Made by a program: the position numbers and the translations under genes
Shown here: piece by piece, positions 2,414 to 51,201 of the stretch
How positions within the stretch are numbered: position 1 is the stretch's first letter
How the letters are laid out: every line of letters begins with the position of its first letter
Sequence record: ON568341.1
Reading direction: 5' to 3' (one strand)
Length of the DNA stretch: 64,000 nucleotides
From: Escherichia phage UE-S1
The notes under the pieces: model-generated
The model's input: only the letters and a program-made list of their open reading frames with translations
Told to the model about the DNA's origin: nothing
The model's database searches: none

Positions 2414-2424
2414 AAAAGAATAAT

Positions 2425-3495
2425 ATGTATACTATTGATGATGAAATAATTAATAATAAATTTATTTCTGATACATACAATGCATATGATATATCTAAAA
2501 TAATTCTCAAGGAAAAGTATCCTCAATTTGATTGGGATACTATTGACCTTGAGAATTTAAAAACTGATGATTATTGTAAAAATGACATTATTGGATATAT
2601 ACAAGATAAAAAAAATATAAAATTGTATGGCATTAAATGTGAAAAATGCTCCCAAAATTACAAACTAAATGGTCTAGGGATATATTTTTCATATAAAGGA
2701 AATTTAGTTAAGGGTAAGTGTCCATGTAATTGTAGTAAGCATAAATTCTACACAAAATATCAAAATATTTTTTTGATTAATGAAAAAGCAAAAACGTTAA
2801 ATTATATTTTTTGTGGTTTTGTTGATGAGTATAAAGGTAAAAATAAAACAAAAATAAAATTATATTGTCCAAATAACAAACATGGTATATGGGATACAAC
2901 ATTAATATATAGTTTTATAGAATCAAACAATGGATGTATTAAATGTGCACATGAATCAGTCGGGTTAAGTAATAGTATAACTTTCGCAGATCATATAAAA
3001 GATTTTTTATCAACTGGTAAGTATAATAAAAATACAAAATTTTGGAAATCTAATAAGATTGACAGTAGAGGATATAATAATTATTGGTTTTGCCAATGTC
3101 CAATATGTAAAACTACAGTTGAGGCATCTACTACAAATCTTAAAAGTGGGAAAGTATCATGTTTATGTAACGGGAACACCCAGCAACAGGGATATATAAA
3201 TTTAGTACTTGACAATGATATACCAATTGCATTAAAATATGGAATAACATCTAATACAGAAGTCAGAGAAAAAACACAAAATCGCAATTCAATCTATGAT
3301 ATTGTAAACTGTGGTGTCTGGGAGTTTGAATCTTCTTTGTTATGTAAATCAGCAGAAGCGGAATGTAAAAGAACTTTCTCACCAGTACTTGAAGCTCGTG
3401 AAATGAAAGATGGATATACTGAAACTACATCACCATTAGATATTGACAAAATCATTGAAATATATGAAAATTGGGGTGGTGTGCGAATAAAATAA
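2425..3495 (+). CDS. Cys-rich hypothetical protein with three repeated Cys-cluster modules
   Basis: Clusters CEKC..CPCNC, CPNNKHG..CIKC, CQCPIC..CLCNG; likely zinc-binding. Confidence 0.5.
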   Translation: MYTIDDEIINNKFISDTYNAYDISKIILKEKYPQFDWDTIDLENLKTDDYCKNDIIGYIQDKKNIKLYGIKCEKCSQNYKLNGLGIYFSYKGNLVKGKCPCNCSKHKFYTKYQNIFLINEKAKTLNYIFCGFVDEYKGKNKTKIKLYCPNNKHGIWDTTLIYSFIESNNGCIKCAHESVGLSNSITFADHIKDFLSTGKYNKNTKFWKSNKIDSRGYNNYWFCQCPICKTTVEASTTNLKSGKVSCLCNGNTQQQGYINLVLDNDIPIALKYGITSNTEVREKTQNRNSIYDIVNCGVWEFESSLLCKSAEAECKRTFSPVLEAREMKDGYTETTSPLDIDKIIEIYENWGGVRIK

Positions 3496-3507
3496 CCGGA
3501 GGTAATT

Positions 3508-4299
3508 ATGAAATTTGTTGTAACGTCAGACGTACACGGTGGCACTGATTACCTCCATAGTGGTGATTACAGTGATACAGTACTGTTCATTGCTGGAGAC
3601 TTCGATGAAGTTAAACGCAGTCGTTACCGTACTGGTATCGAATCACTATGTAAGCAGTTCAAAAATGTAGTGCTGGTTCCTGGCAATCACGAATACTATG
3701 GTTCTAATATCCACAAAACGCATAAAGTTCTATCTGACATGCAAGATGAGATTCCCAATTTCATCTTTTTGCAAAACAAATTTGTATGGCTGGATGGGGT
3801 ACTTCTTGTTGGTAGTACTCTGTGGACAGACTTCGATAAAGGTAACTCTTTGACTAAGTTTGATGCTCGTCAAAAGATGAATGATTATAAACATATCCGT
3901 CATGGAACAACATCCGAGCCTTGGCGTAAGAAGTTGACACCAGATGATACGGAGTTCATGCATTATAAAGATAAACAATTTATTAAAAATTCTATTGACA
4001 CGGCTCGCTTTATGCATGATAATGATTTCAAGGTAATTGTGATTACACATCACGCACCAAGTTATCAAAGTGTTTCACCAAAATATAAAAATGATTCCCT
4101 GAATGGCTGTTACTGTTCAGATATGGATCAGTACATTGAAGATTTGGGTGCTGATATTTGGATTCATGGTCATGTTCATAGTAGCTTTGACTACCACATT
4201 GGTAAGACACGTATCATTTGTAATCCACGAGGCTATGAATCGTACAGTGGTGCTTGTGAGAATTTTGATTACAATCCTAAATTAGTATTTGAAATTTAA
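3508..4299 (+). CDS. calcineurin-like metallophosphoesterase
   Basis: Motifs SDVHGG, IAGDFD, PGNHEY, ITHHAPS, HGHVHSS; GGAGG RBS. Confidence 0.75.
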   Translation: MKFVVTSDVHGGTDYLHSGDYSDTVLFIAGDFDEVKRSRYRTGIESLCKQFKNVVLVPGNHEYYGSNIHKTHKVLSDMQDEIPNFIFLQNKFVWLDGVLLVGSTLWTDFDKGNSLTKFDARQKMNDYKHIRHGTTSEPWRKKLTPDDTEFMHYKDKQFIKNSIDTARFMHDNDFKVIVITHHAPSYQSVSPKYKNDSLNGCYCSDMDQYIEDLGADIWIHGHVHSSFDYHIGKTRIICNPRGYESYSGACENFDYNPKLVFEI

Positions 4300-14294: not shown

Positions 14295-15734
14295 ATGAAA
14301 AAATATACAATTGACACAAACGTACTTCTATCTGACCCTAATGCATCTATTGCGTTTGATGGTGCTGCAATCATTCTACCATTTACTGTTCTAGAAGAAT
14401 TGGATTCAATTAAGAGTCGTAGTGTGGATGTTTCACGAGATGCTCGCGTTGCTATTCGTAACATTGAAGCAATTATTGCAAATGCATCTCATGATGAAAT
14501 TAGTAGTTCTGGTGTTAATATTGCTGATGTTCATACCAATATGAATCCTGACAGCAAATTGTTTGTTATTACAAACGAAGAAGCTGAAGCACTAATTCGT
14601 ACTAAAGGTTCAAACGACAAAGTTCAAACCCTTCTCAAAAGCACTGTACCTGATGATAAAATTATTCTGGTAGCTTTAGCAACCGAATCAGTACTGGTAA
14701 CTCGTGATATCAACATGCGTATCAAAGCACTAAGTTATGGTGTCGAGGTACAAGACTATCGTCATGATATTGTTATTGGTGATAGTGATTTGATTCACAT
14801 TGGTCAACATCATATGGAAATTAATTTTTGGGATGTATATAGCAATTTAACAAATACAAATATTAAAACTGAACAAATCGGTCGTCGATTGTATCATTAC
14901 ATCCCTAAAAGCTTGATTGAGCATTTGCTTCCACAAAATCTATGTATTGGTGATTATCTATATGATGATGCTGATGTATTATTTGTATACGAAGGTCAAT
15001 CAGCCATTGAGGAAGATGATGGTACACTAACACCAGAAGATATTTTGGTATTCCAAGATATTGGTCAATCAGTAGCGTTGCGTACTAAAGTATGGGATAT
15101 TAAAGCAAAGAATATTCAGCAAGCACTTGCCATCAACAGTATTCTCGATCCTGATGTACATCTAACAGTACTACTAGGTTCGGCTGGAACTGGCAAAACA
15201 TTAGTGACGATTGCTACTGCACTAGAGTTAGTACTGGAAAAACGCAAATATGACCGTGTTGTGTTCTCAAAACCACAAGATTCACAATGGGCTGAAATTG
15301 GTTTCTTACCAGGTTCCGAAATGGAAAAAATGCTACCACATTGTGGCCCTGCACTGGATGCATTAGAATTTTTACACAAAGATGATGCCTCACCACAAGG
15401 TAGTATCGAAGAGATTCTTAAACGTAACGTGATGCAATTTAAAGCACTAAACTTTGTGCGTGGACGCTCATTCACTAATACGATTCTTGTAGTTGATGAA
15501 TTCCAAAACATTACACCTGCACAAGCAAAAACTATCTTGACACGAGCAGGATTAAACTGTAAAGTAGTGATTATGGGAAACTTAGCACAGATTGATAGCA
15601 AATTTATCAGTCCAGTAAACAGTGGTTTGACATATGTAACTGAAAAATTCAAAGATTGGAGTGGTTGCCGTATCATTGAATTAGAAGGTGTTGTTCGTTC
15701 ACCACTTGCTGAATTTGCTGAAGAAAATATGTAA
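14295..15734 (+). CDS. phoH: PIN-domain PhoH-like ATPase
   Basis: N-terminal PIN motif (IDTNVLL..PFTVLEELD); Walker A GSAGTGKT in C-terminal PhoH domain. Confidence 0.8.
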   Translation: MKKYTIDTNVLLSDPNASIAFDGAAIILPFTVLEELDSIKSRSVDVSRDARVAIRNIEAIIANASHDEISSSGVNIADVHTNMNPDSKLFVITNEEAEALIRTKGSNDKVQTLLKSTVPDDKIILVALATESVLVTRDINMRIKALSYGVEVQDYRHDIVIGDSDLIHIGQHHMEINFWDVYSNLTNTNIKTEQIGRRLYHYIPKSLIEHLLPQNLCIGDYLYDDADVLFVYEGQSAIEEDDGTLTPEDILVFQDIGQSVALRTKVWDIKAKNIQQALAINSILDPDVHLTVLLGSAGTGKTLVTIATALELVLEKRKYDRVVFSKPQDSQWAEIGFLPGSEMEKMLPHCGPALDALEFLHKDDASPQGSIEEILKRNVMQFKALNFVRGRSFTNTILVVDEFQNITPAQAKTILTRAGLNCKVVIMGNLAQIDSKFISPVNSGLTYVTEKFKDWSGCRIIELEGVVRSPLAEFAEENM

Positions 15735-31643: not shown

Positions 31644-31649
31644 TTTTAA

Positions 31650-31678
31650 AGCTCGTCTATTGACGGGCTTTTCTTTTG
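31650..31678 (+). terminator. intrinsic terminator
   Basis: AGCTCGTC / GACGGGCT stem (one G-U) then T-rich run. Confidence 0.6.
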
Positions 31679-31711
31679 TGTGTATAATACAAAGAAATAT
31701 AGGAGGAAATT

Positions 31712-32278
31712 ATGGTCAAATCATTACTACCACCACCAAAACGACATAAAATCAAAGAAATGAAAGAACAACGCACATTAAAGATGTACAACAACTTAGT
31801 TAAGTTACTTTGCAAAAGCCCATCACTCAAAGAAGTATTCACAACAGATGATGATCGTAATGCACTTATTGAGATGAAATATATGCTCAGTAAAATGTCC
31901 TTTTACAAATTTGTCAAAGAATACTCAACTGAACCATTCAGTCCTCGTTGGCGAGTCAAACCAAGAGAGTATTTTTTCGGTGGTTCATATACTGATATCA
32001 TTCAAGATACGGTGATAGGCGTAGAGTTCGAGATTGATTATGAGCCTAATGGTGTGGAAAACTGGCAGATTGACAAACATTTACCAAGTGAAGATGAAAT
32101 TTATGTTTATGCAAGAAAACAGACAACCTTCAGTTCAAGAATTGCTCTTAATAATTTAGATTCATTTATTATTTTCTATACACGTGTAGGTGTAGATAAA
32201 ATGGTAACTAAACTCAATGAATTATCATTACAACAAAAACAGATTAATGCATACAAAGACATTACAGATTTATACTAA
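31712..32278 (+). CDS. hypothetical protein, tandem paralogue 1 of 3
   Basis: Shares S.LK....T.DDR..L.E.KY.LSK N-terminal pattern with the next two ORFs. Confidence 0.5.
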   Translation: MVKSLLPPPKRHKIKEMKEQRTLKMYNNLVKLLCKSPSLKEVFTTDDDRNALIEMKYMLSKMSFYKFVKEYSTEPFSPRWRVKPREYFFGGSYTDIIQDTVIGVEFEIDYEPNGVENWQIDKHLPSEDEIYVYARKQTTFSSRIALNNLDSFIIFYTRVGVDKMVTKLNELSLQQKQINAYKDITDLY

Positions 32279-32284
32279 TGAGGA

Positions 32285-32806
32285 TTGGATATGTTTTTTG
32301 GACAGTTAAAAAAACCTAACAGTACTTTAATTTGGCATGAAATCATCTTTAAAATTATATCTAAAAGCTACTCACTAAAAGATATTATCAAAACAGATCA
32401 TGATCGACATGTTCTGTTAGAAGCAAAATATAAATTGAGCAAACACCCGTTACTTTCGTTAATCATTGATTACGTTAATGATTATGAATCCAGTCGTTGG
32501 CAGTGGGAAGACGGAGGTTTATTTCGTGGAAAAACATTCTACGGTGCCGAACGATATGTATTCAGTGATACAGCAAATGATGTTAAGTTTGCTATTAGAA
32601 ACTTTAACTCCAAAGAAAATGATTATCTTGAAAGTGGAGTTAAGGTGTATATAGATAATAATAGCAATGTACTTACATATGACGAATCACTAATTATGTT
32701 ACAAATAATGCGTGGAGTTGAAAGTGTAAGACACAATCTTACTAAGTTGAAAATCCAGCAAAATGATATACATAATAGACAGAAAATTAAGGGTTTATAT
32801 AAATGA
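32285..32806 (+). CDS. hypothetical protein, tandem paralogue 2 of 3
   Basis: YSLKDIIKTDHDRHVLLEAKYKLSK. Confidence 0.5.
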   Translation: MDMFFGQLKKPNSTLIWHEIIFKIISKSYSLKDIIKTDHDRHVLLEAKYKLSKHPLLSLIIDYVNDYESSRWQWEDGGLFRGKTFYGAERYVFSDTANDVKFAIRNFNSKENDYLESGVKVYIDNNSNVLTYDESLIMLQIMRGVESVRHNLTKLKIQQNDIHNRQKIKGLYK

Positions 32807-33312
32807 TTTCATTTTTCAAAAAGAAAGAAAAAGTTGATGAAACTGGATTAGAATCGTTTCTATGGACTCTTATCATTAAAAAAAGTCCATTGATGAAAGA
32901 ATATGCTATCAATGATGCTAATAGAAAAACTATCATTGAATACAAATATGAATTATCAAAATGTGATCCAATTGTTTATCACTTTGCGAAGTACTGTTCT
33001 AACAATTTATCGGATATCACTATTGAACACGAGTCAGTACCAATGAGTTTTCCTTATGGTGATTGGGTAGATACTTTTGATATTTTTGATGGTTCAAATG
33101 GTTTCAGTTTCTTTTACTCGTCAAATAAAGCAAATGTTCGTATTAAAACAGAGATAGGTTGGACACAGCATAGCTCAAATAAAGAAGATTATAATTTACT
33201 AGCTGACGTATACCGAAGTGTGAAGAATTCAAAGGATATTGATGAAAGAATTAAAAAGCAAAATCGTATTTCTTTATCACTTGAAACATACAAGTCAAAG
33301 TATGGTGGTTAA
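32803..33312 (+). CDS. hypothetical protein, tandem paralogue 3 of 3
   Basis: SPLMKEYAINDANRKTIIEYKYELSK. Confidence 0.5.
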   Translation: MISFFKKKEKVDETGLESFLWTLIIKKSPLMKEYAINDANRKTIIEYKYELSKCDPIVYHFAKYCSNNLSDITIEHESVPMSFPYGDWVDTFDIFDGSNGFSFFYSSNKANVRIKTEIGWTQHSSNKEDYNLLADVYRSVKNSKDIDERIKKQNRISLSLETYKSKYGG

Positions 33313-33314
33313 CT

Positions 33315-33716
33315 ATGACTACAGTTGATGATATCTATAGTACTATACGAAATATGAGTACAGATAGAAAAGTATTTGGTGATAAAGAAAAATCTAAGTG
33401 TTATGGTATTGATTCTTTTGATATAATTTCGTATGAGTACAACACGAATGGAAATAGTTCACTGAATATCGTCTGCCCTCGTGACCCAGAAAATAATTTT
33501 ATGTATGTTGAAATTAATAATGATGGGATGTTTTTTACAAAAGTTTTCAAAGGTGGTATTAATTACGAACCTATTGAATGTATGAATGAAGAAACTTTCT
33601 TTCAAGAAGATACAATTATCAATTTAGGTTTTAGTTTTGCGGATTATAAAACATTAGAACATGACTTTAATCGTTATTATAACGGTTTCTTAAAGGAGTT
33701 AACAATTTATCTATGA
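33315..33716 (+). CDS. hypothetical protein
   Basis: ORF in array. Confidence 0.45.
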   Translation: MTTVDDIYSTIRNMSTDRKVFGDKEKSKCYGIDSFDIISYEYNTNGNSSLNIVCPRDPENNFMYVEINNDGMFFTKVFKGGINYEPIECMNEETFFQEDTIINLGFSFADYKTLEHDFNRYYNGFLKELTIYL

Positions 33717-34945
33717 ATAACCAATATGTTGAACAAACAATAGTGAAACACTTGGCTGGGTCACAAGCCTACGGAACCAGTACGCCTGAAAGTGATACTG
33801 ATTATCGTGGTATTTTTCTTGCTAATAAAGAATTTATTCTTACGCCATTCTATAAGGTTAAAGAAGTAGCTGATAAAAATGAAGAAGATACCAAATTCTA
33901 TGAGTTAAATCAGTATTTAAAATTATACACTGAAGCCAACCCTAATATTCTGGAATCACTATGGGTTGAACCAGAACACATTGTAGAAAGTACTGAGATT
34001 TATGACTATCTTCGTTCATTTAACCAAAAACTTCTTAGTTCTAAGATTGCATTTTCATATACTGGATATGCATATAATCAGATTAAGCGTATGACAAATC
34101 ATCACGGTTGGATGGATAAAGAGCGAATTGCTGAAAAACGTTTAAATGAGATTTTAGAAGAACACCCTGTCGATGAGGTTCTTGCGTGGATGTATGATTC
34201 ATTCCCACAATATCTTGTTGAACGTTTAGATACATCTAACTTACATCCATTTAATACTAAAAAGATTGATTTTGAAAAATATATGCGTGATACGTCATTG
34301 CAGTTAGTTTCGAAAAATCCATTAAAGCAATATCATTTTGTAAGATTAGTGCATAACTACACTACTGACAAAATTCTAGATCGTGATTTCAATTTATTGA
34401 ATTTTAATAATGGCTATGAACTAATTCATTACGGAGAAAACATTTTTGCGATTATTAAAAATCCAAATGAAAGCACTATCAACGGTGATGGATCATTGCG
34501 TTATTTTTCTAAAGAGCGTAGTACTGAAGAATTGAAAACTAAACCAGAACTAATTGTCAAATTTAACGAAAAAGAATATCAGGAAAATAGTGAGAATAGA
34601 AAAAGTTATCATAAATGGAAAGAAAATCGTAATGCCAAACGTGCTATTTTAGAATCACAACACGGATACGATTGTAAACATGCTATGCACACAATCCGAC
34701 TTTTGAATAGTGCAGAAGAAGCATTACAAAGTGGAATTATTCAAGTTAAACGACCAGATGCACAAATGTTGATGGATATTCGTAATGGTAAATGGAAGTA
34801 TGAAGAAGTCTTAGAATATTTCGATGATAAAGTACAATACATTCGTGATGTTCTATATAAGAAATCAGTACTTCCCAAAAAACCTAACATCAAGTTAGCA
34901 TCGAAAATTATAATTGATATTCGAGAAATGCAATGGTATAAGTAA
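33713..34945 (+). CDS. pol-beta-superfamily nucleotidyltransferase
   Basis: N-terminal GSQAYGTSTPESDTDYRG matches the NTase-fold signature G[SG]..(9-13)..D.D; 410 aa with uncharacterised C-terminal region. Confidence 0.55.
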   Translation: MNNQYVEQTIVKHLAGSQAYGTSTPESDTDYRGIFLANKEFILTPFYKVKEVADKNEEDTKFYELNQYLKLYTEANPNILESLWVEPEHIVESTEIYDYLRSFNQKLLSSKIAFSYTGYAYNQIKRMTNHHGWMDKERIAEKRLNEILEEHPVDEVLAWMYDSFPQYLVERLDTSNLHPFNTKKIDFEKYMRDTSLQLVSKNPLKQYHFVRLVHNYTTDKILDRDFNLLNFNNGYELIHYGENIFAIIKNPNESTINGDGSLRYFSKERSTEELKTKPELIVKFNEKEYQENSENRKSYHKWKENRNAKRAILESQHGYDCKHAMHTIRLLNSAEEALQSGIIQVKRPDAQMLMDIRNGKWKYEEVLEYFDDKVQYIRDVLYKKSVLPKKPNIKLASKIIIDIREMQWYK

Positions 34946-35007
34946 TATATGGGTGTAATAGTTATAAAAATTCCATTACACACCAAATCACTTCAGTGAT
35001 TTATAAC

Positions 35008-35035
35008 TTGACATTGAAAAATAATTATGTATAAT
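35008..35035 (+). promoter_or_regulatory. sigma70-like promoter
   Basis: TTGACA - 16 nt - TATAAT; -10 abuts the terminator hairpin. Confidence 0.5.
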
Positions 35036-35037
35036 TA

Positions 35038-35065
35038 GAGAACTTCATATGGAGTTCTCTTTTTT
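35038..35065 (+). terminator. intrinsic terminator
   Basis: GAGAACT / AGTTCTC stem then T6. Confidence 0.6.
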
Positions 35066-35079
35066 ATAAGGGTGATAAA

Positions 35080-35481
35080 ATGTTAAATGAACGTATTAAA
35101 AATGCACTATATGTATTGAACCAAGAAGTTAATTCTATTCATAAAAGTACTGAGCGATATAAAGTATTACATGAAATTAGACAAGAATTGGAATCCATTA
35201 ATAAGGGAAAATGGGTTCTTGAACGCGAACGAACTATTGTTGAAAAAGCAATTGCAAAATTCATCTCGGAACGTTATGGTAAAATTTCAGAGGAAGATGT
35301 ACTAATGAACTTACATCTTTCACAAACGGAAGTGATGGAGAAATTTCATTTTGATTCATTAGACTGGTTAGAAATGATCATGGAATTGGAAGAAGAATTC
35401 AATGTAGAAGTAGATTTATATTATGAAAAACAAGAAACCAAACTATATGAACTAGCAGAACACATTAAACTAATGATGTAA
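35080..35481 (+). CDS. acyl-carrier-protein-like protein
   Basis: C-terminal FDSLDWLEMIMELEEEFNVEVD matches the ACP phosphopantetheine-attachment region (DSLD..E..M.LEEEF); ~55-aa N-terminal extension. Confidence 0.55.
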   Translation: MLNERIKNALYVLNQEVNSIHKSTERYKVLHEIRQELESINKGKWVLERERTIVEKAIAKFISERYGKISEEDVLMNLHLSQTEVMEKFHFDSLDWLEMIMELEEEFNVEVDLYYEKQETKLYELAEHIKLMM

Positions 35482-35534
35482 ACATATACCATTATATACT
35501 CTAAATAATATCATCAACCACAGGAGATATTATT

Positions 35535-35909
35535 ATGAGTATACTAGAAATAATAGTTTCAAACATTCTTATTCCATATTGGAAACCAATTTCTTTTGCA
35601 TTATTAATTAGTGGTTCAGCAATTGCGGGTTGGAAAGCTAATACTTATTATACTGGTTATCAAGAAAGTATAGAGCAACAAATAGCCAAAAAAGTTGATA
35701 TAGCACTTGATAAAATGCAACAAGAAAATACAAAAAGCTATCTTGAAACAAAAAAAATTATGGAAGATAATACAAAAGTCATTGAAACAAAGGTTCCTTA
35801 TATAGTAGAACGTGAAGTTTATAAAAATGTTTGTTTAGATGAAGATGGTGTGAAAGTACTGAATGAACTTAAACAAAATTCTAAAGCGGCAAGGAATAAA
35901 TTCAAATGA
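35535..35909 (+). CDS. i-spanin-like protein
   Basis: N-terminal TM helix (ISFALLISGSAIAGW) then charged coiled-coil-like region; overlaps next gene by ATGA. Confidence 0.5.
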   Translation: MSILEIIVSNILIPYWKPISFALLISGSAIAGWKANTYYTGYQESIEQQIAKKVDIALDKMQQENTKSYLETKKIMEDNTKVIETKVPYIVEREVYKNVCLDEDGVKVLNELKQNSKAARNKFK

Positions 35910-36214
35910 AAAAAATGTTAGTACCGTTTATTTCTTTTTTAATTATAAGTGGATGTGCAGAACAAGTAAAAGTACAATCCCCTGCACCAATTAAACAAGA
36001 AATTCTGTTAGAAAGATGTGATGATGACACACCACTACCACAAAAAATTATGATTGACCAAAACGGATTTAAAGGGTATAGTGGGAGTGAAATTCTCAAA
36101 GTTCTTACCCGTTGGGATGCAATCTATAACGAATGTGCATTGAAACATGATGCATTGATCAAAACCATTCGTGATTTACAAGGTAAAGATATTAAAATAA
36201 ATATCAAGGATTAA
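35906..36214 (+). CDS. o-spanin-like lipoprotein
   Basis: Lipobox-like FLIISGC at N-terminus; position immediately after TM/coiled-coil gene. Confidence 0.5.
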   Translation: MKKMLVPFISFLIISGCAEQVKVQSPAPIKQEILLERCDDDTPLPQKIMIDQNGFKGYSGSEILKVLTRWDAIYNECALKHDALIKTIRDLQGKDIKINIKD

Positions 36215-36215
36215 A

Positions 36216-36827
36216 ATGAACAAATATCATGTTTATTATACAACAAAGTTATCCCTTCTTGATGAATTAAATCACCGAAGTACTAAGATGAAACGTTATA
36301 CTTTAAATGGTATTACTTTTCGATATTTCCCACAAAAAGTCCTTACTTTTGTCAAGAATCCAAAATGCGTGGCATGTGGGATTGAAGCCACTGAAGTACG
36401 CATTGAACGTACATTTAGTTCTGATCCAGTTTATGGTAAACCACATTTAAATGTATATGCGGTATGTGGTCTTTATGAAGTGTTGATGACAGTTGATCAC
36501 AACCATCTGGCATCGAAGGGTGGTTGTGATTTAGAGTCAAACTTTAATACTATGTGCTCCAAATGCAATCAACTACGTTCTAATAAAACCGAAACAGTTG
36601 ATGAGTTTCTTGAGAAAGTTAAAGATCGTAATCTTCTCCAAGAACATATGAATAAATTCTTTAACGTACAAAAAAAGAAAAATAACATTGACAAGTCGAA
36701 ACTACTAGAAGAACGTAGGTTACGTCAAGAATTATGGGAAACAGACCATCTATGGCATGTTCGAGAATTTGGTCGTCATATGAAAGCTTTGAAAAAAGAA
36801 CAGAAGAAATTGAATAAACATGATTGA
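36216..36827 (+). CDS. HNH endonuclease
   Basis: VDHNHLASKGGCDLESNFNTMCSKCNQLRSN (HNH core with CxxC); CxxC also upstream (CVAC); strong terminator follows. Confidence 0.7.
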   Translation: MNKYHVYYTTKLSLLDELNHRSTKMKRYTLNGITFRYFPQKVLTFVKNPKCVACGIEATEVRIERTFSSDPVYGKPHLNVYAVCGLYEVLMTVDHNHLASKGGCDLESNFNTMCSKCNQLRSNKTETVDEFLEKVKDRNLLQEHMNKFFNVQKKKNNIDKSKLLEERRLRQELWETDHLWHVREFGRHMKALKKEQKKLNKHD

Positions 36828-36840
36828 TATGATATTATAG

Positions 36841-36868
36841 GGACTTGAGTATTCAAGTCCTTTTTTTT
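36841..36868 (+). terminator. intrinsic terminator
   Basis: GGACTTGA / TCAAGTCC stem then T8. Confidence 0.8.
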
Positions 36869-36879
36869 GGAGAAGATAA

Positions 36880-37236
36880 ATGAAATCTAAAATATTTTTA
36901 CCACAATTAATGTGGCATCTGGCAGAGTTAGATGAAGATGATGAATATACTGACTATGGTGCATGGGATGACAGTACTGAAACTTTTAAATCAGATGTAA
37001 AATATAAAATCATCTGCAATGAAAGCAAAGGGCACAGAAGGTGGACTGAAGAATTTGATCTCGTATTTCTTGACATGAGTACAAATAAGTTTTATCATTG
37101 TACTTATGAACGAGGTTTAACAGAAGATAGACCAGTACAACCATTCAGTAATGAAACGGATGGTGTTAAGTGCAATGAAGTTTCTGTAACCAGAGAAGAA
37201 ATTATTACTTATCGAACTTTGTGGAAATATTTGTAA
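36880..37236 (+). CDS. hypothetical protein
   Basis: ORF with GGAG RBS. Confidence 0.5.
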   Translation: MKSKIFLPQLMWHLAELDEDDEYTDYGAWDDSTETFKSDVKYKIICNESKGHRRWTEEFDLVFLDMSTNKFYHCTYERGLTEDRPVQPFSNETDGVKCNEVSVTREEIITYRTLWKYL

Positions 37237-45617: not shown

Positions 45618-45950
45618 ATGCTAAATCTAAATATTCAAGGCAACGTTGATATCACTCCAGCAATCCAAGATGCTATTTATAATGAAGCAAAAAGTCTGGA
45701 TAAGTACCGTACTTCTTCAGTACTAGACATTGGTGTTCATGTTAAGAAAGAGCATAAAACTCAATATGCTGTAACTTTAACTGCTGGTAGTAAATCAGTA
45801 ACTGCTGATGATGCTGATTTGTATAAAGCAATTGTTGAATCTTTTGATAAGATGGAAACTGTATTCAGTAAAGACAAAAGCATTAAATTACACCGCCGAA
45901 ACCATCCAGAACACCCCGTTCTTGATGATTTGACAGAAAACGAAGAGTAA
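45618..45950 (+). CDS. hypothetical protein
   Basis: AAGGAAGG RBS; terminator follows. Confidence 0.5.
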   Translation: MLNLNIQGNVDITPAIQDAIYNEAKSLDKYRTSSVLDIGVHVKKEHKTQYAVTLTAGSKSVTADDADLYKAIVESFDKMETVFSKDKSIKLHRRNHPEHPVLDDLTENEE

Positions 45951-45961
45951 GATAGACTAAA

Positions 45962-45990
45962 GGGACAGATTAATTCTGTCCCTTTTCTTA
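45962..45990 (+). terminator. intrinsic terminator
   Basis: GGGACAGA / TCTGTCCC stem then T-rich run. Confidence 0.8.
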
Positions 45991-46003
45991 TGGAGTTTTA
46001 ATT

Positions 46004-46399
46004 ATGAATTATTCCTGGATGGAAATTGTAAAATCTCTAATATCAACACATGATATGGACTTACCTGAACACTTAGTTATTAATAGATGGTACTATCCAT
46101 ATCCAGATAACCGTTGTGTTGGGATTGGATTTTTTATTAATGAAAAATCTCAATATATTGGATTAATTGAAGATTATACAAAAACCAACATTGCGTTCTC
46201 AATTGAGTTGAATGTAGATCACATAAAATACTACACTAATAAAATGGACGAAGACGATGGTGATGTTATAATTCCAGCAGAAATAGATGAAGCTTCATTT
46301 TTTCAGTTATCATTAATTCATGATGTATCTGATATTACTTATGATAATGTGAAAGACCTTTTTATATTGTACAATAAACTGTATAATTACTTTTTATAA
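46004..46399 (+). CDS. hypothetical protein
   Basis: ORF in array. Confidence 0.5.
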   Translation: MNYSWMEIVKSLISTHDMDLPEHLVINRWYYPYPDNRCVGIGFFINEKSQYIGLIEDYTKTNIAFSIELNVDHIKYYTNKMDEDDGDVIIPAEIDEASFFQLSLIHDVSDITYDNVKDLFILYNKLYNYFL

Positions 46400-46412
46400 C
46401 AGAGGAATTGTA

Positions 46413-46598
46413 ATGGAATATACCATATGTGTAATTGTATGTATCGTAGCCTTACTTGCAGGAGTTGGTGTGATGATTTACTGTGATGCGGAACCCAGTA
46501 CAGAAACAGGAACAACTATTGAACTTAAGCCTGGTGTTAAGGTAAATGATTCATATTGTTACGATCCACATAGTAATAAGTATGTGATTTGTCTATGA
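46413..46598 (+). CDS. small membrane protein
   Basis: N-terminal TM helix ICVIVCIVALLAGVGVMIY. Confidence 0.4.
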   Translation: MEYTICVIVCIVALLAGVGVMIYCDAEPSTETGTTIELKPGVKVNDSYCYDPHSNKYVICL

Positions 46599-47005
46599 AA
46601 AAGTTTGATATTAAACCTATGATCGATGCTATCGAAATTAAATTAAAAAATACTAAAAAGACAGATAGTACATGTTTGTTCTTTAGCTTAGATAAAATGT
46701 ATTATGAAACACACGTGTCAAGTTATGATAGAACAGGAAATCTCTTCATCCGTACTTATAACATATTTTATAGTGACGATGTTTTTATGATAGATATAAA
46801 TCTGGATGAAAGTATAGTGTTGATGTATATTGAGGATGTTCAATCAACAGAACAACGAAACGGGACTCTTCCTATTGCTGCTACAGAGGAAGAGTTTATG
46901 CAATATCAGTTCATTGATGATACCTTTGGCATTGACTTTGACACATATCAGAGTATAATGAGGGTATACGAACTTTATGAGGATTATGTGATTGGACGTT
47001 ACTAA
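46589..47005 (+). CDS. hypothetical protein, paralogue 1 of 2
   Basis: C-terminal QYQFIDDTFGIDFDTYQSIMRVYELY paralogous to next ORF. Confidence 0.5.
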   Translation: MSMKKFDIKPMIDAIEIKLKNTKKTDSTCLFFSLDKMYYETHVSSYDRTGNLFIRTYNIFYSDDVFMIDINLDESIVLMYIEDVQSTEQRNGTLPIAATEEEFMQYQFIDDTFGIDFDTYQSIMRVYELYEDYVIGRY

Positions 47006-47414
47006 AATTTCAAAATTTAATGAAACTTTAAAGTACTTTGCTGAACACGAAATCAGTACTGAAAGACGCGGTTTAATTTCATACAATCCACATCGTGTTC
47101 TGTACACTAATAATTTTCAGGGTACAGTTCGTATTAAATTTCGTAATGCACTCGAAGACAATGATGAATTGTTAATTTTACTACGAAAAAGTAAGATTGA
47201 ATTAACATACGTAACTCACGATATTGAAAGTGAGTTGATGTGGCACACGCTGTCAAAAAAAGAAGGTTCATTGCCAGTTGTTGATAATGGCCCTGAAACA
47301 CTTGATCAGTACATGTTCATTGATGATACATTTGGCATTGACTATTCTGCGTATCAATGTATACTAGCTATATACGAAAAATATTACGACCGTCTACGTG
47401 ACAGATTAATTTAA
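46992..47414 (+). CDS. hypothetical protein, paralogue 2 of 2
   Basis: C-terminal DQYMFIDDTFGIDYSAYQCILAIYEKY. Confidence 0.5.
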   Translation: MDVTKISKFNETLKYFAEHEISTERRGLISYNPHRVLYTNNFQGTVRIKFRNALEDNDELLILLRKSKIELTYVTHDIESELMWHTLSKKEGSLPVVDNGPETLDQYMFIDDTFGIDYSAYQCILAIYEKYYDRLRDRLI

Positions 47415-47425
47415 TTGGAGGCATT

Positions 47426-47548
47426 GTGATTACAGTATTAGAAGAGGATTGGGGTGTTTCAGAGCAAGGAACTGACGAATATGAATACCCAGAATATAAG
47501 ACTAAAGGCTTTTGGGAACGTTTTCGTGATTGGTTGATGGGGGAATAA
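47426..47548 (+). CDS. candidate small ORF (40 aa)
   Basis: Not on track; GTG start 5 nt after GGAGG; stop directly precedes CCA-enzyme ATG. Confidence 0.3.
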   Translation: MITVLEEDWGVSEQGTDEYEYPEYKTKGFWERFRDWLMGE

Positions 47549-47549
47549 T

Positions 47550-48662
47550 ATGAAAAAGTATTTGGTTGGCGGTTACGTCCGTGACCGTTTAATGGGTCTT
47601 CGTGCAAAAGACAAAGATTATGTCATTGTTGGTGCATCCGAATCTGATCTTAAGTACTTGCAAAGTATTGGCTATAAGCAAGTAGGTAAGGATTTCCCAG
47701 TATATCTAAGTCCAGAAGGTAATGAACACGCATTAGCCCGTACTGAGCGTAAAACTGGTACTGGATATGGTGGATTTGAAGTGGATACAAAAGGCGTAAC
47801 ACTAGAACAAGATTTGTATCGCCGTGACCTTACAATAAACAGTATCGCGTATGATCCAGTACTGCAAATTCACATCGACCCATACGGTGGAAAAGCTGAT
47901 ATCAAGAATAAAGTTCTACGCCATGTATCCGAACACTTCAAAGAAGATCCATTGCGTGTATTACGCCTGTGTCGCTTTGCAACGCGTTATTCTGATTTCT
48001 CTATACACGAGACTACTGAAGCACTTGTCATCGATATGGTAGCGTCTGGTGAGCTAAATCATCTTGTTCCAGACCGTGTTTTTGTGGAATTTGAAAAAGC
48101 ACTGTCGGAAGAAAAGCCAGCTAAGTTCCTTAAGACTCTAAGTCATTTTGGTTATTACGAAAATGTGTTTAAAACACCATTGACCAAAAAGAATTTGGAT
48201 CTCATTGATTATATTTCAGATAACTGTACTGATGTATATAAACCATATTTTCTGTGGTCTATTCTTCTAGAAAATGAAGAAGTAAATAATGACTCAGAAA
48301 TTAACGGTGCTATTAAAGTTCCTGTTAAATATGTCAAATTTAGTAATTACATCAAACTTTTCCGTGATGATATCAAAACATTCCGTAAAAAGACCCCAAA
48401 TGAAATGGGACAGTTATTACTGGATATGAATATTAAAAATAATGGAGGTGAAGAATTCCTTTATAAAGTGTTGGAATACTTCATTTTGCGAAAAGAAATT
48501 GATTTAGAACTTGAAGATCTAATTATTAAAGTTTATGATCGTTATACTGATGTTGAATTACCTGATATTCAGCAAATGGTTAAAGATGGTGAACTTGAAA
48601 CGTCAGAAATTCGTGATTTTGTTTGTGAACTCCGATGTGAAGCAATCAAGAAACTATTCTAA
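47550..48662 (+). CDS. tRNA nucleotidyltransferase (CCA-adding enzyme)
   Basis: N-terminal GGYVRDRLMG and KDKDYV match the Pol-beta head domain of CCA-adding enzymes / poly(A) polymerases. Confidence 0.7.
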   Translation: MKKYLVGGYVRDRLMGLRAKDKDYVIVGASESDLKYLQSIGYKQVGKDFPVYLSPEGNEHALARTERKTGTGYGGFEVDTKGVTLEQDLYRRDLTINSIAYDPVLQIHIDPYGGKADIKNKVLRHVSEHFKEDPLRVLRLCRFATRYSDFSIHETTEALVIDMVASGELNHLVPDRVFVEFEKALSEEKPAKFLKTLSHFGYYENVFKTPLTKKNLDLIDYISDNCTDVYKPYFLWSILLENEEVNNDSEINGAIKVPVKYVKFSNYIKLFRDDIKTFRKKTPNEMGQLLLDMNIKNNGGEEFLYKVLEYFILRKEIDLELEDLIIKVYDRYTDVELPDIQQMVKDGELETSEIRDFVCELRCEAIKKLF

Positions 48663-48770
48663 AAAACAGTGGGACAGAATACCAATAACTGATATAATTA
48701 TTAGTATCTGAACATCGATTGATGAAAAAGAGATAAGATATGCGTTATAGTTGTGGTATAATATTTTATC

Positions 48771-49172
48771 GTGATGGTCAGATACTTATCGGACATACAA
48801 CACGGACAGAAACATTGGGATTTACCTAAAGGGAAAGCAGAGGGTGAAGAAACATTCAAAGAAGCTGCTGTGCGTGAATGTTTTGAAGAGACAGGATACG
48901 AAATCGATGAAGATGATCTTCTGTTTCTTGGTGATGTATCCTATAGAAAGGGAAAAAGGTTGGTTCTTTTCTTTTATACTGCTAAAGACAAGCCTGTACC
49001 AGATGAATTAGTATGTAAAAGTACATATACTAATAGATATGGTAAGAGTCATCCAGAATTGGATAAGTTCATGTACATTGATGTGCGAGAATGTCAAAAG
49101 TATTTGACTGAACGAATGTGTAACAGTATAATAAAAGCGGTTAAAGCTTTTCAAAGAAATAAAAGGAAATAA
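48771..49172 (+). CDS. Nudix hydrolase (N-terminal strand encoded in a different frame; possible frameshift)
   Basis: Canonical Nudix box GKAEGEETFKEAAVRECFEETGYEI; a 29-codon ORF at 48740-48829 in another frame encodes MRYSCGIIFYRDGQILIGHTTRT, the expected Nudix N-terminal strand. Confidence 0.55.
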   Translation: MMVRYLSDIQHGQKHWDLPKGKAEGEETFKEAAVRECFEETGYEIDEDDLLFLGDVSYRKGKRLVLFFYTAKDKPVPDELVCKSTYTNRYGKSHPELDKFMYIDVRECQKYLTERMCNSIIKAVKAFQRNKRK

Positions 49173-49173
49173 T

Positions 49174-49422
49174 ATGAAAGTTAAAATTTATGGTCGCACG
49201 ACTGGTTGTAAATTTTGCGATACTGCAAAAGCTGTATGTGAGCAAAATAAATTTGACATGGAATTTGTAGATATTGTTACTGAAGGTATTGATGGTGCAA
49301 AGCTATCAGAAATTTGTGGTGAGCCAGTACGTCAGGTTCCTCAAATTTTTGTAAATGACATTTATGTACCTGGGGGTTGTACTGGATTTATTGAAGGACT
49401 TAAAGAAGGTCGTTGGAAATAA
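49174..49422 (+). CDS. nrdC: glutaredoxin/thioredoxin (NrdC-like)
   Basis: KIYGRTTGCKFCDTAK CxxC active site; overall resemblance to T4 NrdC (KVYG..C.YCDNAK .. PQ.F). Confidence 0.65.
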   Translation: MKVKIYGRTTGCKFCDTAKAVCEQNKFDMEFVDIVTEGIDGAKLSEICGEPVRQVPQIFVNDIYVPGGCTGFIEGLKEGRWK

Positions 49423-49664
49423 TGGATATTGAAAAAGTATCATCTCGTGCAAAACAACTAGCTGACACGTTGGGAGTAGAGTTCAAAATTCCTGATATCA
49501 CCATCGCTAAAGAAAAAGCACAGAATAAAATTAATAAGATGAAAGAATATCTATCTAAACAGGAGCAATATGATTCTGCTGTAGAATTTATTATGAAATC
49601 ATTTAGTAAAGATGATATTTTGGCATTCATCAAATATGTGAAGGTTTCTGGTAACCCTAAATAA
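49422..49664 (+). CDS. hypothetical protein
   Basis: Start overlaps upstream stop (TAATG). Confidence 0.45.
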   Translation: MDIEKVSSRAKQLADTLGVEFKIPDITIAKEKAQNKINKMKEYLSKQEQYDSAVEFIMKSFSKDDILAFIKYVKVSGNPK

Positions 49665-49694
49665 CAATGAAGAACAAAAGTTCTTCTTAACAAT

Positions 49695-49949
49695 TTGGGA
49701 GATACTATTATGCTCAGTTTTCGTGAACAATTAGCAAAAGGTCAAATTAAGACTCAAGCTCAAACTAATATTCCTAAAAAATCTGCATTTTTGGGAACAA
49801 TTACGGAAGATGGATATTGTGACTATGATGCACCAGAAGATTCATGGTATATTACAAAAGACACAAAACGTAGTAATAGACTTCACAAAAGTACAATAGC
49901 TAGAAAGCATCGAAAAGAATTGAAAAAAATTCGTTTCGGTGAAGAATAA
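49695..49949 (+). CDS. small basic protein
   Basis: GGGAGA RBS; terminator follows. Confidence 0.45.
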   Translation: MGDTIMLSFREQLAKGQIKTQAQTNIPKKSAFLGTITEDGYCDYDAPEDSWYITKDTKRSNRLHKSTIARKHRKELKKIRFGEE

Positions 49950-49963
49950 TAAAATATAAATTA

Positions 49964-49993
49964 AGGACTCTGTGTTTGGAGTCCTTTCTTTTC
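49964..49993 (+). terminator. intrinsic terminator
   Basis: AGGACTC / GAGTCCT stem then T-rich run. Confidence 0.7.
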
Positions 49994-50003
49994 GGAGAAC
50001 ATA

Positions 50004-50480
50004 ATGATACATGAGCACCGAGGTAATCTGTTTGAATTGTTCAGTACTGTAACCGATGATGAAACTGCATTGCATATTATTGCACATGGTTGCAACGCCC
50101 AAGGTAAAATGGGTTCTGGTTTTGCAAAAGAACTAAGAAATCGTTACCCAATGGCATATGATGATTATAAAGCATATGAAAAGGAAATGGGATTTCTAAG
50201 AACTGGAAAAATTGCATATTCTTCGGTAAGTGATGATTTACTTATTGCAAACTGTATTACCCAACAATTCTACGGGAATGATGGTAAAAAATATGTAAGT
50301 TATGATGCAATTGATGATATTTTCAAAGAGATAAATTACTTATGTAATATTGAACGTAGTGTTTATGTACACTTTCCGAAAATTGGAGCCGATTTGGGTG
50401 GTGGTAACTGGAACGTTATCAAAGAAATTATTGATCACAGACTGGTCAATGCAGAAAAACACTTATATATTCTAAAATAA
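50004..50480 (+). CDS. macro-domain protein (ADP-ribose binding/processing)
   Basis: HGCNAQGKMGSGFAKEL and HFPKIGADLGGGNW resemble macro-domain Gly-rich loops. Confidence 0.6.
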   Translation: MIHEHRGNLFELFSTVTDDETALHIIAHGCNAQGKMGSGFAKELRNRYPMAYDDYKAYEKEMGFLRTGKIAYSSVSDDLLIANCITQQFYGNDGKKYVSYDAIDDIFKEINYLCNIERSVYVHFPKIGADLGGGNWNVIKEIIDHRLVNAEKHLYILK

Positions 50481-50491
50481 TCAAAAAGGAC

Positions 50492-50809
50492 TTGACAAAA
50501 ATGACTATGACCGTTAAACTACTAAACATCAATAACATTGGCCCAGTACTAGCTGTTCTTCAAACTGATTCTGCTGAAGCAGTGGTAGTTAACTACCCAG
50601 CACAATTAGGTACTGATGAAAATGGTGAAATCATTCTTCGTGATTATCTAGAGTTTGTTAGTATGGAGAAAAATGTTATTTTTTATAAATCCAACATTAT
50701 TAGTGTTAGTGATGCAAACCCTGCATTAGTTGATGCTTATGTTGATGCTATTAAAGCAATCGAAGACACTCCAAAAGTTTTTGTTCCTGAGAATAAAATT
50801 ATTCTATAA
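50492..50809 (+). CDS. hypothetical protein
   Basis: ORF in array. Confidence 0.5.
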   Translation: MTKMTMTVKLLNINNIGPVLAVLQTDSAEAVVVNYPAQLGTDENGEIILRDYLEFVSMEKNVIFYKSNIISVSDANPALVDAYVDAIKAIEDTPKVFVPENKIIL

Positions 50810-50823
50810 TAGAGGTATATAAA

Positions 50824-51201
50824 ATGGCTGTTAATGACGTTAAAGTAAAAACTATTCAAGCTATCGTAGTACTGAAAGATTCAACTCCATCTCCAAAAGA
50901 ATTGGTAATGGCTGGGATGACAATGCTTCATCAATACAATCCTGAATCACCAAATTATGTTCAAGAATACGAAGCAAAGCAGTTTAAAGAACATTGGCAG
51001 TCATGGATTAAAGATAATGAAATGGAGCAAGTTGTTTATGCTGCTGATGACATTTTCGAATTAGAACAAATTGAATATCTAGCAGGTCAACAATCTGTGC
51101 CGTTGAGTATCTTCGGTAATGGTGAAGAAGTCTTAGTTCTAGGACCATTCACTGCCGATGTAATTACACACTTACTAAGTAATTGTGAAAAAATTGGCTA
51201 A
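50824..51201 (+). CDS. hypothetical protein
   Basis: ORF in array. Confidence 0.5.
   Translation: MAVNDVKVKTIQAIVVLKDSTPSPKELVMAGMTMLHQYNPESPNYVQEYEAKQFKEHWQSWIKDNEMEQVVYAADDIFELEQIEYLAGQQSVPLSIFGNGEEVLVLGPFTADVITHLLSNCEKIG

Follow-up and report, generated by a model that had tools for sequence, protein, structure and literature searches.

An RlaP-family nucleotidyltransferase of jumbo coliphages and its candidate role in RNA 3'-end repair

Escherichia phage UE-S1 carries, in the 64,000-nucleotide stretch of its sequence that we analysed (record ON568341.1; one strand, referred to below as the window), a gene whose 410-amino-acid (aa) product bears the mark of a nucleotidyltransferase (NTase) of the Pol-beta superfamily. 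To what does such an enzyme transfer its nucleotides? The initial annotation, made from the sequence alone, had called the substrate unknown. The match of the protein to the RlaP family, at 60 bits, and to PHROG 388 over its full length, points to a substrate class; by analogy with the characterised members of the family we favour, with reservations, the reading that the enzyme extends RNA (tRNA) 3' ends as part of a phage RNA-repair toolkit.

Family membership and catalytic residues

The gene was found on the + strand, as an open reading frame (ORF) with the same limits, 33713-34945, as had been given initially. The GC content of the region is ~30%, at which stops make up roughly 8% of random codons and a 410-codon frame has a chance of ~1e-15 (0.92^410); the frame is therefore not there by chance. 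UE-S1 is an Asteriusvirus, of the 121Q/PBECO4/SP27/ph0011 group of ~350-kb jumbo coliphages, and the protein is 97-99.5% identical to its counterparts in ph0011, SP27 (99.5%) and 121Q (gp506). The gene is already labelled 'nucleotidyltransferase' in 121Q (gp506), in ph0011 and in many other records.

Pfam assigns aa 12-131 of the protein to PF10127 (RlaP, 'RNA repair pathway DNA polymerase beta family'), with E=2.9e-16 and 60.4 bits, above the gathering cutoff of 23; the match covers profile positions 23-144 of 249. PHROG 388, 'nucleotidyltransferase', spans aa 3-409 with E=1.4e-76. A clustered protein database returned 795 homologues, all of which, among the matches listed, carry a prior PF10127 annotation, and an exhaustive HMMER search returned 6,881 clusters (50% identity) at E<=1e-3 and 463 at E<=1e-30. 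PDB sequence searches at E<=10, with the protein and with a profile of 39 sequences, gave no match; a scan of NCBIfam gave one spurious sub-threshold match and nothing else; PADLOC models gave no match at E<=1.

Two other identities found no support. The protein is not a class II CCA-adding enzyme or poly(A) polymerase, having no match to PF01743, and it is distinct, as the initial annotation had it, from the CCA-adding enzyme at 47550, which has a PolyA_pol head and RNA-binding domains. Nor does it resemble CD-NTase/SMODS proteins or other defence or anti-defence NTases: besides the lack of a PADLOC match, Foldseek aligns it to CdnC and CdnE with E ~1-2 and a template-modelling (TM) score of ~0.1.

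Conservation was read from two alignments, A1, of 39 homologues at 25-87% identity, and A3, of 26 diverse sequences, among them compact RlaPs of ~250 aa, exonuclease fusions and T4-type NrdC.11. The sequence of residues 16-33 is GSQAYGTSTPESDTDYRG, as first quoted, and chance does not explain the NTase signature seen there near the N-terminus: all 39 homologues keep G16, S17, D28 and D30. The other invariant residues of A1 are D59 and E64 in the N-terminal part and W302, R306, N307, R310, E314, D320, K322, H323, H326, R329, R347, D349, R357 and G359 in the C-terminal part. In A3 the invariant residues are G16, S17, S27, D28, D30 and D59, while K322, H326, R329, E336, D349 and G359 are kept in at least 90% of the sequences and the invariance of E64 is confined to the closer set, A1. 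Both alignments thus show the three conserved carboxylates and the G[GS] motif of an RlaP, and the invariance of D28, D30 and D59 across the diverse set points to these three as the probable catalytic triad. That the protein belongs to the RlaP family and is catalytically competent we regard as nearly certain.

Domain architecture and the two-part insertion

A confident AlphaFold2 (AF2) model built on an alignment (predicted local distance difference test, pLDDT, 90.9; predicted TM score, pTM, 0.80) consists of an alpha/beta NTase domain to ~aa 110, with strands at 9-15, 30-35, 51-54, 60-64 and 90-93, a long helix (112-150), a helical segment (154-209), a four-stranded beta-module (210-284) and an all-helical C-terminal domain (286-409). 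The first of these has the minimal fold of the Pol-beta superfamily (clan CL0260): G[GS] lies where strand 1 of a mixed beta-sheet gives way to helix 2, and strands 2 and 3 carry the carboxylates. The initial annotation had made its assignment hang on two points, the conservation of the aspartate pair in homologues and the kinship of the fold to Pol-beta NTases; neither D28 nor D30 varies in A1 or A3, and the fold is of that kind. Residue-level features and domain limits are collected in Table 1.

Beyond its signature the protein had been described as ~330 residues with no recognised domain. For Pfam this holds, since the match is limited to aa 12-131 and neither the C-terminal part alone nor the middle part alone gives a match; it does not hold for PHROG 388, whose match runs to aa 409, or for aa 292-408, which have their homologue in the C-terminal domain of compact RlaPs. 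This homology was established transitively. The matches of two compact RlaPs, P0162 (264 aa) and P0218 (247 aa), to the Pfam RlaP model reach positions 227 and 208 of 249, respectively; these two proteins are 50-51% identical to the UE-S1 protein over its aa 10-127, and 33-40% identical over aa 292-408 (P0162) or 307-408 (P0218), with E of 1e-21 and 7e-20. Structure prediction, the check initially proposed for this part of the protein, yields an all-helical domain, and the two-domain organisation of an RlaP, an NTase domain and a C-terminal helical domain, is present in the model despite the insertion of ~160 aa between the two. The C-terminal bundle was also considered as a HEPN RNase and rejected: it lacks the conserved Rx4-6H catalytic motif.

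The insertion is made up of a ~60-aa helical piece and the small beta-module. The helical piece, in whose region AF2 places helices 154-163, 166-169, 187-190 and 194-199, occurs only in forms of ~410-436 aa and is a gap in every ~350-aa form of A1. A search for structural neighbours of the beta-module in the PDB found none. The ~160 aa as a whole probably tune substrate recognition.

Comparison with relatives places these parts in context. Closest in architecture are the ~350-aa PHROG 388 proteins of Vequintavirinae/Seunavirus, of Erwinia and Pantoea phages and of many metagenomic phages, which are homologous over their full length at 33-47% identity, beta-module included; unlike the UE-S1 protein they are without the ~60-aa helical insert, and many of their genes lie behind a CCA-adding enzyme gene or in a gp32-UvsX-UvsW module (see below). 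T4 NrdC.11 is likewise a phage RlaP with the same catalytic residues, encoded by a dispersed accessory gene in a genome with Rnl1, Rnl2 and Pnkp, but it is distant: a T4-type NrdC.11, compared via the RB9 orthologue (336 aa), aligns with aa 8-150 at 29% identity and with aa 275-377 at 24%, the middle region being unrelated by sequence, and the T4 gene lies beside homing endonucleases and is dispensable. Bacterial RlaPs share with the UE-S1 protein the N-terminal NTase domain at Pfam level, the G-S, DxD and third Asp residues, the homologous C-terminal helical domain and the predicted two-domain cleft; it differs from them in its ~160 extra residues between the domains, Pfam aligning the first half of its model only. 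Further off are structural neighbours with no kinship at sequence level (8-15% identity), namely the 3c18 NTase-like protein, Hailong HalB, ANT(4')/KNTase, ANT(3'')(9) and MNT antitoxins, which act on aminoglycosides or proteins or synthesize free oligo-dA, and which are without the insertion modules.

Homologues of 660-760 aa were examined as possible ligase or kinase fusions, and that identity was rejected in favour of probable inteins or RNase_T exonuclease fusions. In P0122 the RlaP segments are separated by a LAGLIDADG domain, probably that of an intein; P0150 and P0165 end in a DEDD RNase_T-type 3'-5' exonuclease, as would suit enzymes that work on the 3' ends of nucleic acids. RlaP ORFs at about double the usual length (713-789 aa) also occur in three viral loci (L072, 6221-8587; L091, 9926-12064; L092, 194-2332).

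Table 1. Features of the NTase gene and of associated loci, in window coordinates
Feature	Position	Strand	Basis or remark
RlaP-family (PF10127) Pol-beta NTase gene, 410 aa, ATG start	33713..34945	+	ORF, Pfam and PHROG 388
N-terminal catalytic NTase domain, aa 1-131	33713..34105	+	Pfam aa 12-131; AF2 fold; homology to compact RlaPs
G16-S17, NTP-binding hG[GS] motif	33758..33763	+	Invariant in both alignments; junction of strand 9-15 and helix 16-20 (AF2)
D28-T-D30, metal-binding carboxylate pair	33794..33802	+	Invariant in both alignments; start of strand 30-35 (AF2)
D59, probable third catalytic carboxylate	33887..33889	+	Invariant in both alignments, including T4-type NrdC.11; just before strand 60-64 (AF2)
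Helical insert of ~60 aa (aa ~137-197), jumbo-phage clade only	34121..34303	+	Alignment A1 and AF2
Beta-meander module, aa ~198-291	34304..34585	+	Common to ~350-aa PHROG 388 proteins; missing from compact RlaPs
C-terminal helical domain, aa 292-410	34586..34942	+	Homologous to RlaP C-terminal domain; putative RNA-binding side of cleft
Class II CCA-adding enzyme, 12.6 kb downstream of NTase gene; candidate functional partner	47550..48662	+	PolyA_pol head and PolyA_pol_RNAbd
Upstream 133-aa ORF, phrog_22376, stop overlapping NTase start (ATGA)	33315..33716	+	Sequence, PHROG
Terminator-like hairpin overlapping sigma70-like promoter (TTGACG-17-TATAAT); putative start of five-ORF unit	31648..31688	+	Consensus scan
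Terminator-like hairpin (10 bp) and T-run, ~90 nt past NTase stop; putative unit end	35037..35060	+	Consensus scan

RNA repair as the candidate role

RlaPs owe their name to operonic association with RNA ligases, and were predicted to replace nucleotides lost at damaged RNA ends ahead of ligation (PMC7824862, PMC12776372); a review of jumbo phages has their distribution mirroring that of RNA ligases (PMC7824862). Two of them, PfRlaP and PaRlaP from Pseudomonas, have been characterised in a preprint of December 2025 (PMC12776372). Given E. coli RNA, DNA and protein, these enzymes labelled RNA alone; they put one or two nucleoside monophosphates (NMP), or dNMP, on an RNA 3'-OH, a reaction that a 3'-phosphate blocks and for which DNA, genomic or synthetic, is no acceptor, and they prefer Mn2+ or Co2+ to Mg2+ (PMC12776372). 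They favour the 5' half of a cleaved-tRNA mimic and, in a nicked mimic, prefer the break in the anticodon loop to the acceptor end; in vitro they also label full-length tRNAs and free 3' ends (PMC12776372). Pre-treatment with RlaP partly rescued aminoacylation of a religated tRNA that was short of one nucleotide, and the 3'-OH product suits 5'-phosphate RNA ligases as it stands, while being problematic for RtcB (PMC12776372). The PfRlaP crystal structure has an NTase domain and a helical domain with a basic cleft, and T4 NrdC.11 is assigned to cluster 5 of the family (PMC12776372).

The enzymes with which an RlaP might work are present in the lineage of UE-S1. In the relative vB_Ec-M-J, genes annotated as RNA ligase and polynucleotide kinase are found 6-9 kb upstream of the one for ATP-dependent DNA ligase that corresponds to window 992-2413, and Pfam identifies their products as Rnl1 (RNA_lig_T4_1, PF09511, and T4_Rnl1_C, PF20819) and Pnkp (P-loop kinase and HAD_PNKP). 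Both occur across the genus, in SP27, 121Q, PBECO4 and ph0011; in SP27 Rnl1 occupies 200,111-201,250, Pnkp 202,077-203,006 and RlaP 238,963-240,192. The pair thus lies ~36-39 kb from the NTase gene, just beyond the window, among whose genes no RNA ligase was found; nor were tRNA genes found within these 64 kb. A paper on an Asteriusvirus genome counts eight tRNA genes there, besides an RNA ligase (PMC12805682). With Rnl1, Pnkp and the CCA-adding enzyme of the window, the phage lineage has a T4-type healing-and-sealing set, with a ligase chemistry that matches the RlaP product and with its genes dispersed as in T4. RNA-repair enzymes co-occur in the genome with bacterial RlaPs too; unlike the bacterial genes, that of the phage is in no operon with RtcB, RtcA or a ligase, and the phage ligase is of the Rnl1 type (5'-phosphate), not RtcB. 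The CCA-adding enzyme (PF01743) resembles the UE-S1 NTase in belonging to the Pol-beta superfamily, in untemplated addition to RNA 3' ends and in its part in phage tRNA maintenance; it differs in family and in its body and RNA-binding domains, and adds a defined CCA rather than one or two unspecified nucleotides.

A pathway built from these enzymes would run as follows. Host ribotoxins would cut tRNA or other RNA during infection and may take nucleotides out as well: the wobble base is excised by RloC (PMC2610378, PMC3458546), and Cas12a3 trims tRNAs 2-4 nt from the 3' end, up to the discriminator base (PMC12851939). Phage Pnkp would convert the RNA ends to 3'-OH and 5'-phosphate, and the RlaP enzyme would then put one or two non-templated NMPs on the healed 3'-OH, G16-S17 positioning the NTP triphosphate, D28, D30 and D59 holding two divalent metals (Mn2+, by analogy with characterised members) and the conserved basic C-terminal helical domain forming the RNA-binding side of the cleft. 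The extended end would be resealed by phage Rnl1, or an acceptor end finished by the CCA-adding enzyme, and some share of the products would regain function. For the UE-S1 protein itself, RNA as substrate, the number of nucleotides added, the targets in vivo and a counter-defence role are all what we infer.

Several findings weigh against this role in RNA repair. The biochemistry of the family is that of two Pseudomonas enzymes in one preprint, none from a phage, and Pfam, by sequence, detects only the N-terminal domain of the UE-S1 protein, which the ~160-aa insertion with its beta-module sets apart from the characterised RlaPs, so that its acceptor could differ from theirs. Co-occurrence of the gene with Rnl1, Pnkp (~36-39 kb) and the CCA-adding enzyme (12.6 kb) is at genome level only: it shares no operon with repair genes, and its direct neighbours have functionless annotations and are not conserved. 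T4 nrdC.11, in the nrdC-mobD region, is in a fragment lost from a viable genome-reduced T4 (PMC9825161); this dispensability fits an accessory, host-dependent function. Finally, in group A, as we call the largest sampled lineage of ~350-aa relatives (47 loci; 23/41 clusters), the gene sits in a Pfam-verified block, gp32-UvsX(RecA)-RlaP-x-x-UvsW, that is a DNA recombination module, and is not beside RNA-repair genes. An example is L010 (7952-13599); the UvsW gene of L040 is interrupted by an intein.

Gene neighbourhoods were examined in Pfam-annotated contigs and 80 viral loci, scanned with hidden Markov models from Pfam-verified seeds, and they bear on two rival explanations. One is suggested by a second lineage, group B, in which RlaP is preceded on the same strand, at 0-2.8 kb, by the gene of a CCA-adding enzyme in 20 sampled loci (with the limit set at 3.5 kb upstream, 11/35 RlaP clusters at 70% identity and 14/54 at 90%); for one given gene in a genome of 100-150 kb we roughly estimate the chance rate at ~1-2%. 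In L014 (8781-11029) the CCA gene and the start of RlaP share 4 nt, with an RNA ligase ~9.5 kb off, and in L008, L013 and L079 Pnkp, CCA and RlaP genes follow one another within ~6 kb with no ligase between. These four phage contigs look unrelated to one another, and their arrangement has the look of a compact tRNA end-repair module. In L075 Rnl1 lies 2.9 kb downstream of RlaP. Such loci suit restoration of the tRNA 3' tail without a ligase, in which, once nucleases had trimmed past the CCA into the discriminator base, Pnkp would remove the 3'-phosphate, RlaP put back whatever nucleotides were missing and the CCA-adding enzyme rebuild CCA; the labelling of full-length tRNAs and free 3' ends by bacterial RlaPs, and the existence in Cas12a3 of an immune nuclease that truncates tRNAs by 2-4 nt (PMC12851939), speak for it as well. 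For the UE-S1 enzyme we nevertheless consider it unlikely. The jumbo clade to which its gene belongs, group J (15 loci), has neither CCA adjacency nor a recombination-module context, the CCA gene of UE-S1 being 12.6 kb off, and characterised RlaPs favour a break in the anticodon loop over the acceptor end. A group-B genome devoid of RNA ligase would have lent support, but KE22, a complete one, has two annotated RNA ligases; RlaP and ligases thus share a genome in this group as well, and the comparison does not favour a role strictly without ligases. Nor are the counts those of independent events, since each group shows extended synteny and the linked loci may be few phage lineages; the neighbourhood evidence is therefore supportive but mixed. 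We give a similarly small chance to the more specific form of this proposal, in which insertion-bearing phage RlaPs, rather than assisting ligation at the anticodon loop, would take the first step of a ligase-independent tRNA-tail pathway by restoring the discriminator nucleotide, against trimming of the Cas12a3 or HEPN type, with the beta-module reading the acceptor stem.

The group A block is the main ground for another explanation, that the enzyme serves DNA metabolism as a terminal transferase on DNA 3' ends or on RNA primers in replication and recombination. Homologues fused to a DEDD RNase_T/DnaQ-type exonuclease would suit such an activity, and the subfamily-specific beta-module could alter acceptor specificity. 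Yet characterised RlaPs take no DNA acceptor, the block is multi-gene synteny in one lineage and thus roughly a single evolutionary observation, groups A and B are disjoint, with recombination context found neither in B nor in J (which is about equally distant from both, at a median identity of 38-40%), and T4 nrdC.11 is dispensable and lies outside the replication module; we judge a DNA role to be quite improbable. Action on something other than nucleic acid, whether protein AMPylation, ANT-like nucleotidylylation of small molecules, or, as an anti-defence function, HalB- or CD-NTase-like synthesis or sequestration of nucleotide signals, seems to us very unlikely: the structural matches that might suggest it are generic Pol-beta similarity, at 8-15% identity and Foldseek E>=0.014, CD-NTase matches have E ~1 or higher, no PADLOC model matches, and the RlaPs tested do not modify proteins. 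Among the activities initially listed, modification of nucleic acids or proteins or interference with nucleotide signalling, it is the first, with RNA as the nucleic acid, that the evidence makes the probable one.

Local gene context, other loci and implications

The NTase gene appears to be the last of five tightly packed + strand ORFs (beginning at 31712, 32285, 32803 and 33315, then the NTase gene) that form a putative transcription unit, as judged from their spacing and from the signals at either end (Table 1). The three ORFs at 31712-33312, of 188, 173 and 169 aa, are weak paralogues (~29% identity) in the function-less PHROGs phrog_18641 and phrog_7868; AAGGAG lies 14 nt upstream of the NTase ATG. 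In the 134-nt gap after the gene a perfect sigma70 consensus promoter, TTGACA-16-TATAAT, occupies 35008-35035, just before the hairpin at 35037-35060, so that hairpin and promoter are laid out similarly here and at 31648-31688. The consensus scan found 6 terminator-like sites against 1.9 expected.

The initial annotation had looked for partners of the NTase in its two neighbours, ORFs 33315-33716 and 35080-35481. The second of these encodes 133 aa with an N-terminal extension and a C-terminal region like an acyl carrier protein (ACP; PP-binding exactly at the Pfam cutoff, and PHROG ACP families), and is labelled 'carrier domain' or 'D-alanyl carrier protein' in relatives. Both ORFs adjoin the NTase gene in Asteriusvirus and one Klebsiella RaK2-like phage only, and are not near it in Eneladusvirus or Seunavirus; being kept next to it in the nearest genera only, they are unsupported as candidate partners, and as obligate ones we reject them. 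In the SP27/121Q/PBECO4 sub-clade, megablast coverage stops just past the NTase gene (window 34982-37000), the NTase itself being 99.5% identical, and it continues in ph0011 and slurp01; the segment with the ACP-like, spanin and HNH-endonuclease genes has therefore been rearranged between sub-clades, possibly via the HNH gene at 36216-36827.

Other loci of the window deserve mention. An ATP-dependent DNA ligase (992-2413), a CapR-homology-domain protein (2425-3495; 'endonuclease' in PHROG) and a calcineurin-like metallophosphoesterase (3508-4299) are encoded at 992-4299, and vB_Ec-M-J is without the CapR-homology gene between the other two. At 14295-15734 lies a 479-aa fusion of a PIN domain and a PhoH-like ATPase, a combination whose role a jumbo-phage review called enigmatic (PMC7824862). 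The segment 16803-18952 holds a 389-aa ORF (no Pfam match; C-terminal part matching a MazG-like PHROG) and a 323-aa ORF with a C-terminal WGR domain; ph0011 and vB_Ec-M-J hold shorter ORFs at the equivalent place, and it therefore looks like a variable island. A cluster for translation and nucleotide functions, 45618-51201, includes, besides the CCA-adding enzyme, a homologue of the HPF/S30AE ribosome hibernation factor (45618-45950), a NUDIX protein (48771-49172) and, at 50004-50480, a weak Macro domain. In ph0011 the counterpart of 50824-51201 is labelled 'aminoacyl-tRNA hydrolase'; Pfam did not reproduce this, and the label was not used as evidence.

Published work already covers the RlaP family, the role predicted for it and its occurrence in jumbo phages, and the gene already bears the labels PF10127 and 'nucleotidyltransferase'. 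Undescribed in the literature examined are the two-part insertion, the recurrence of the CCA-to-RlaP pair and the place of the gene within a recombination module in the largest lineage, which are leads on the RlaP family rather than surprises at this locus. In practice, 'RlaP-family RNA 3'-end nucleotidyltransferase' could replace 'hypothetical protein' or 'nucleotidyltransferase' as the label of such genes. If the role in RNA repair is true, the enzyme would complete a T4-style RNA-repair kit of Pnkp, Rnl1, CCA-adding enzyme and RlaP in therapeutically relevant jumbo coliphages, and the phage could survive ribotoxins that not only cut tRNAs but delete nucleotides from them, damage beyond the reach of simple religation; the insertion, the CCA-to-RlaP pair and the recombination-module context would then offer leads on how enzymes of the RlaP family choose their substrates.

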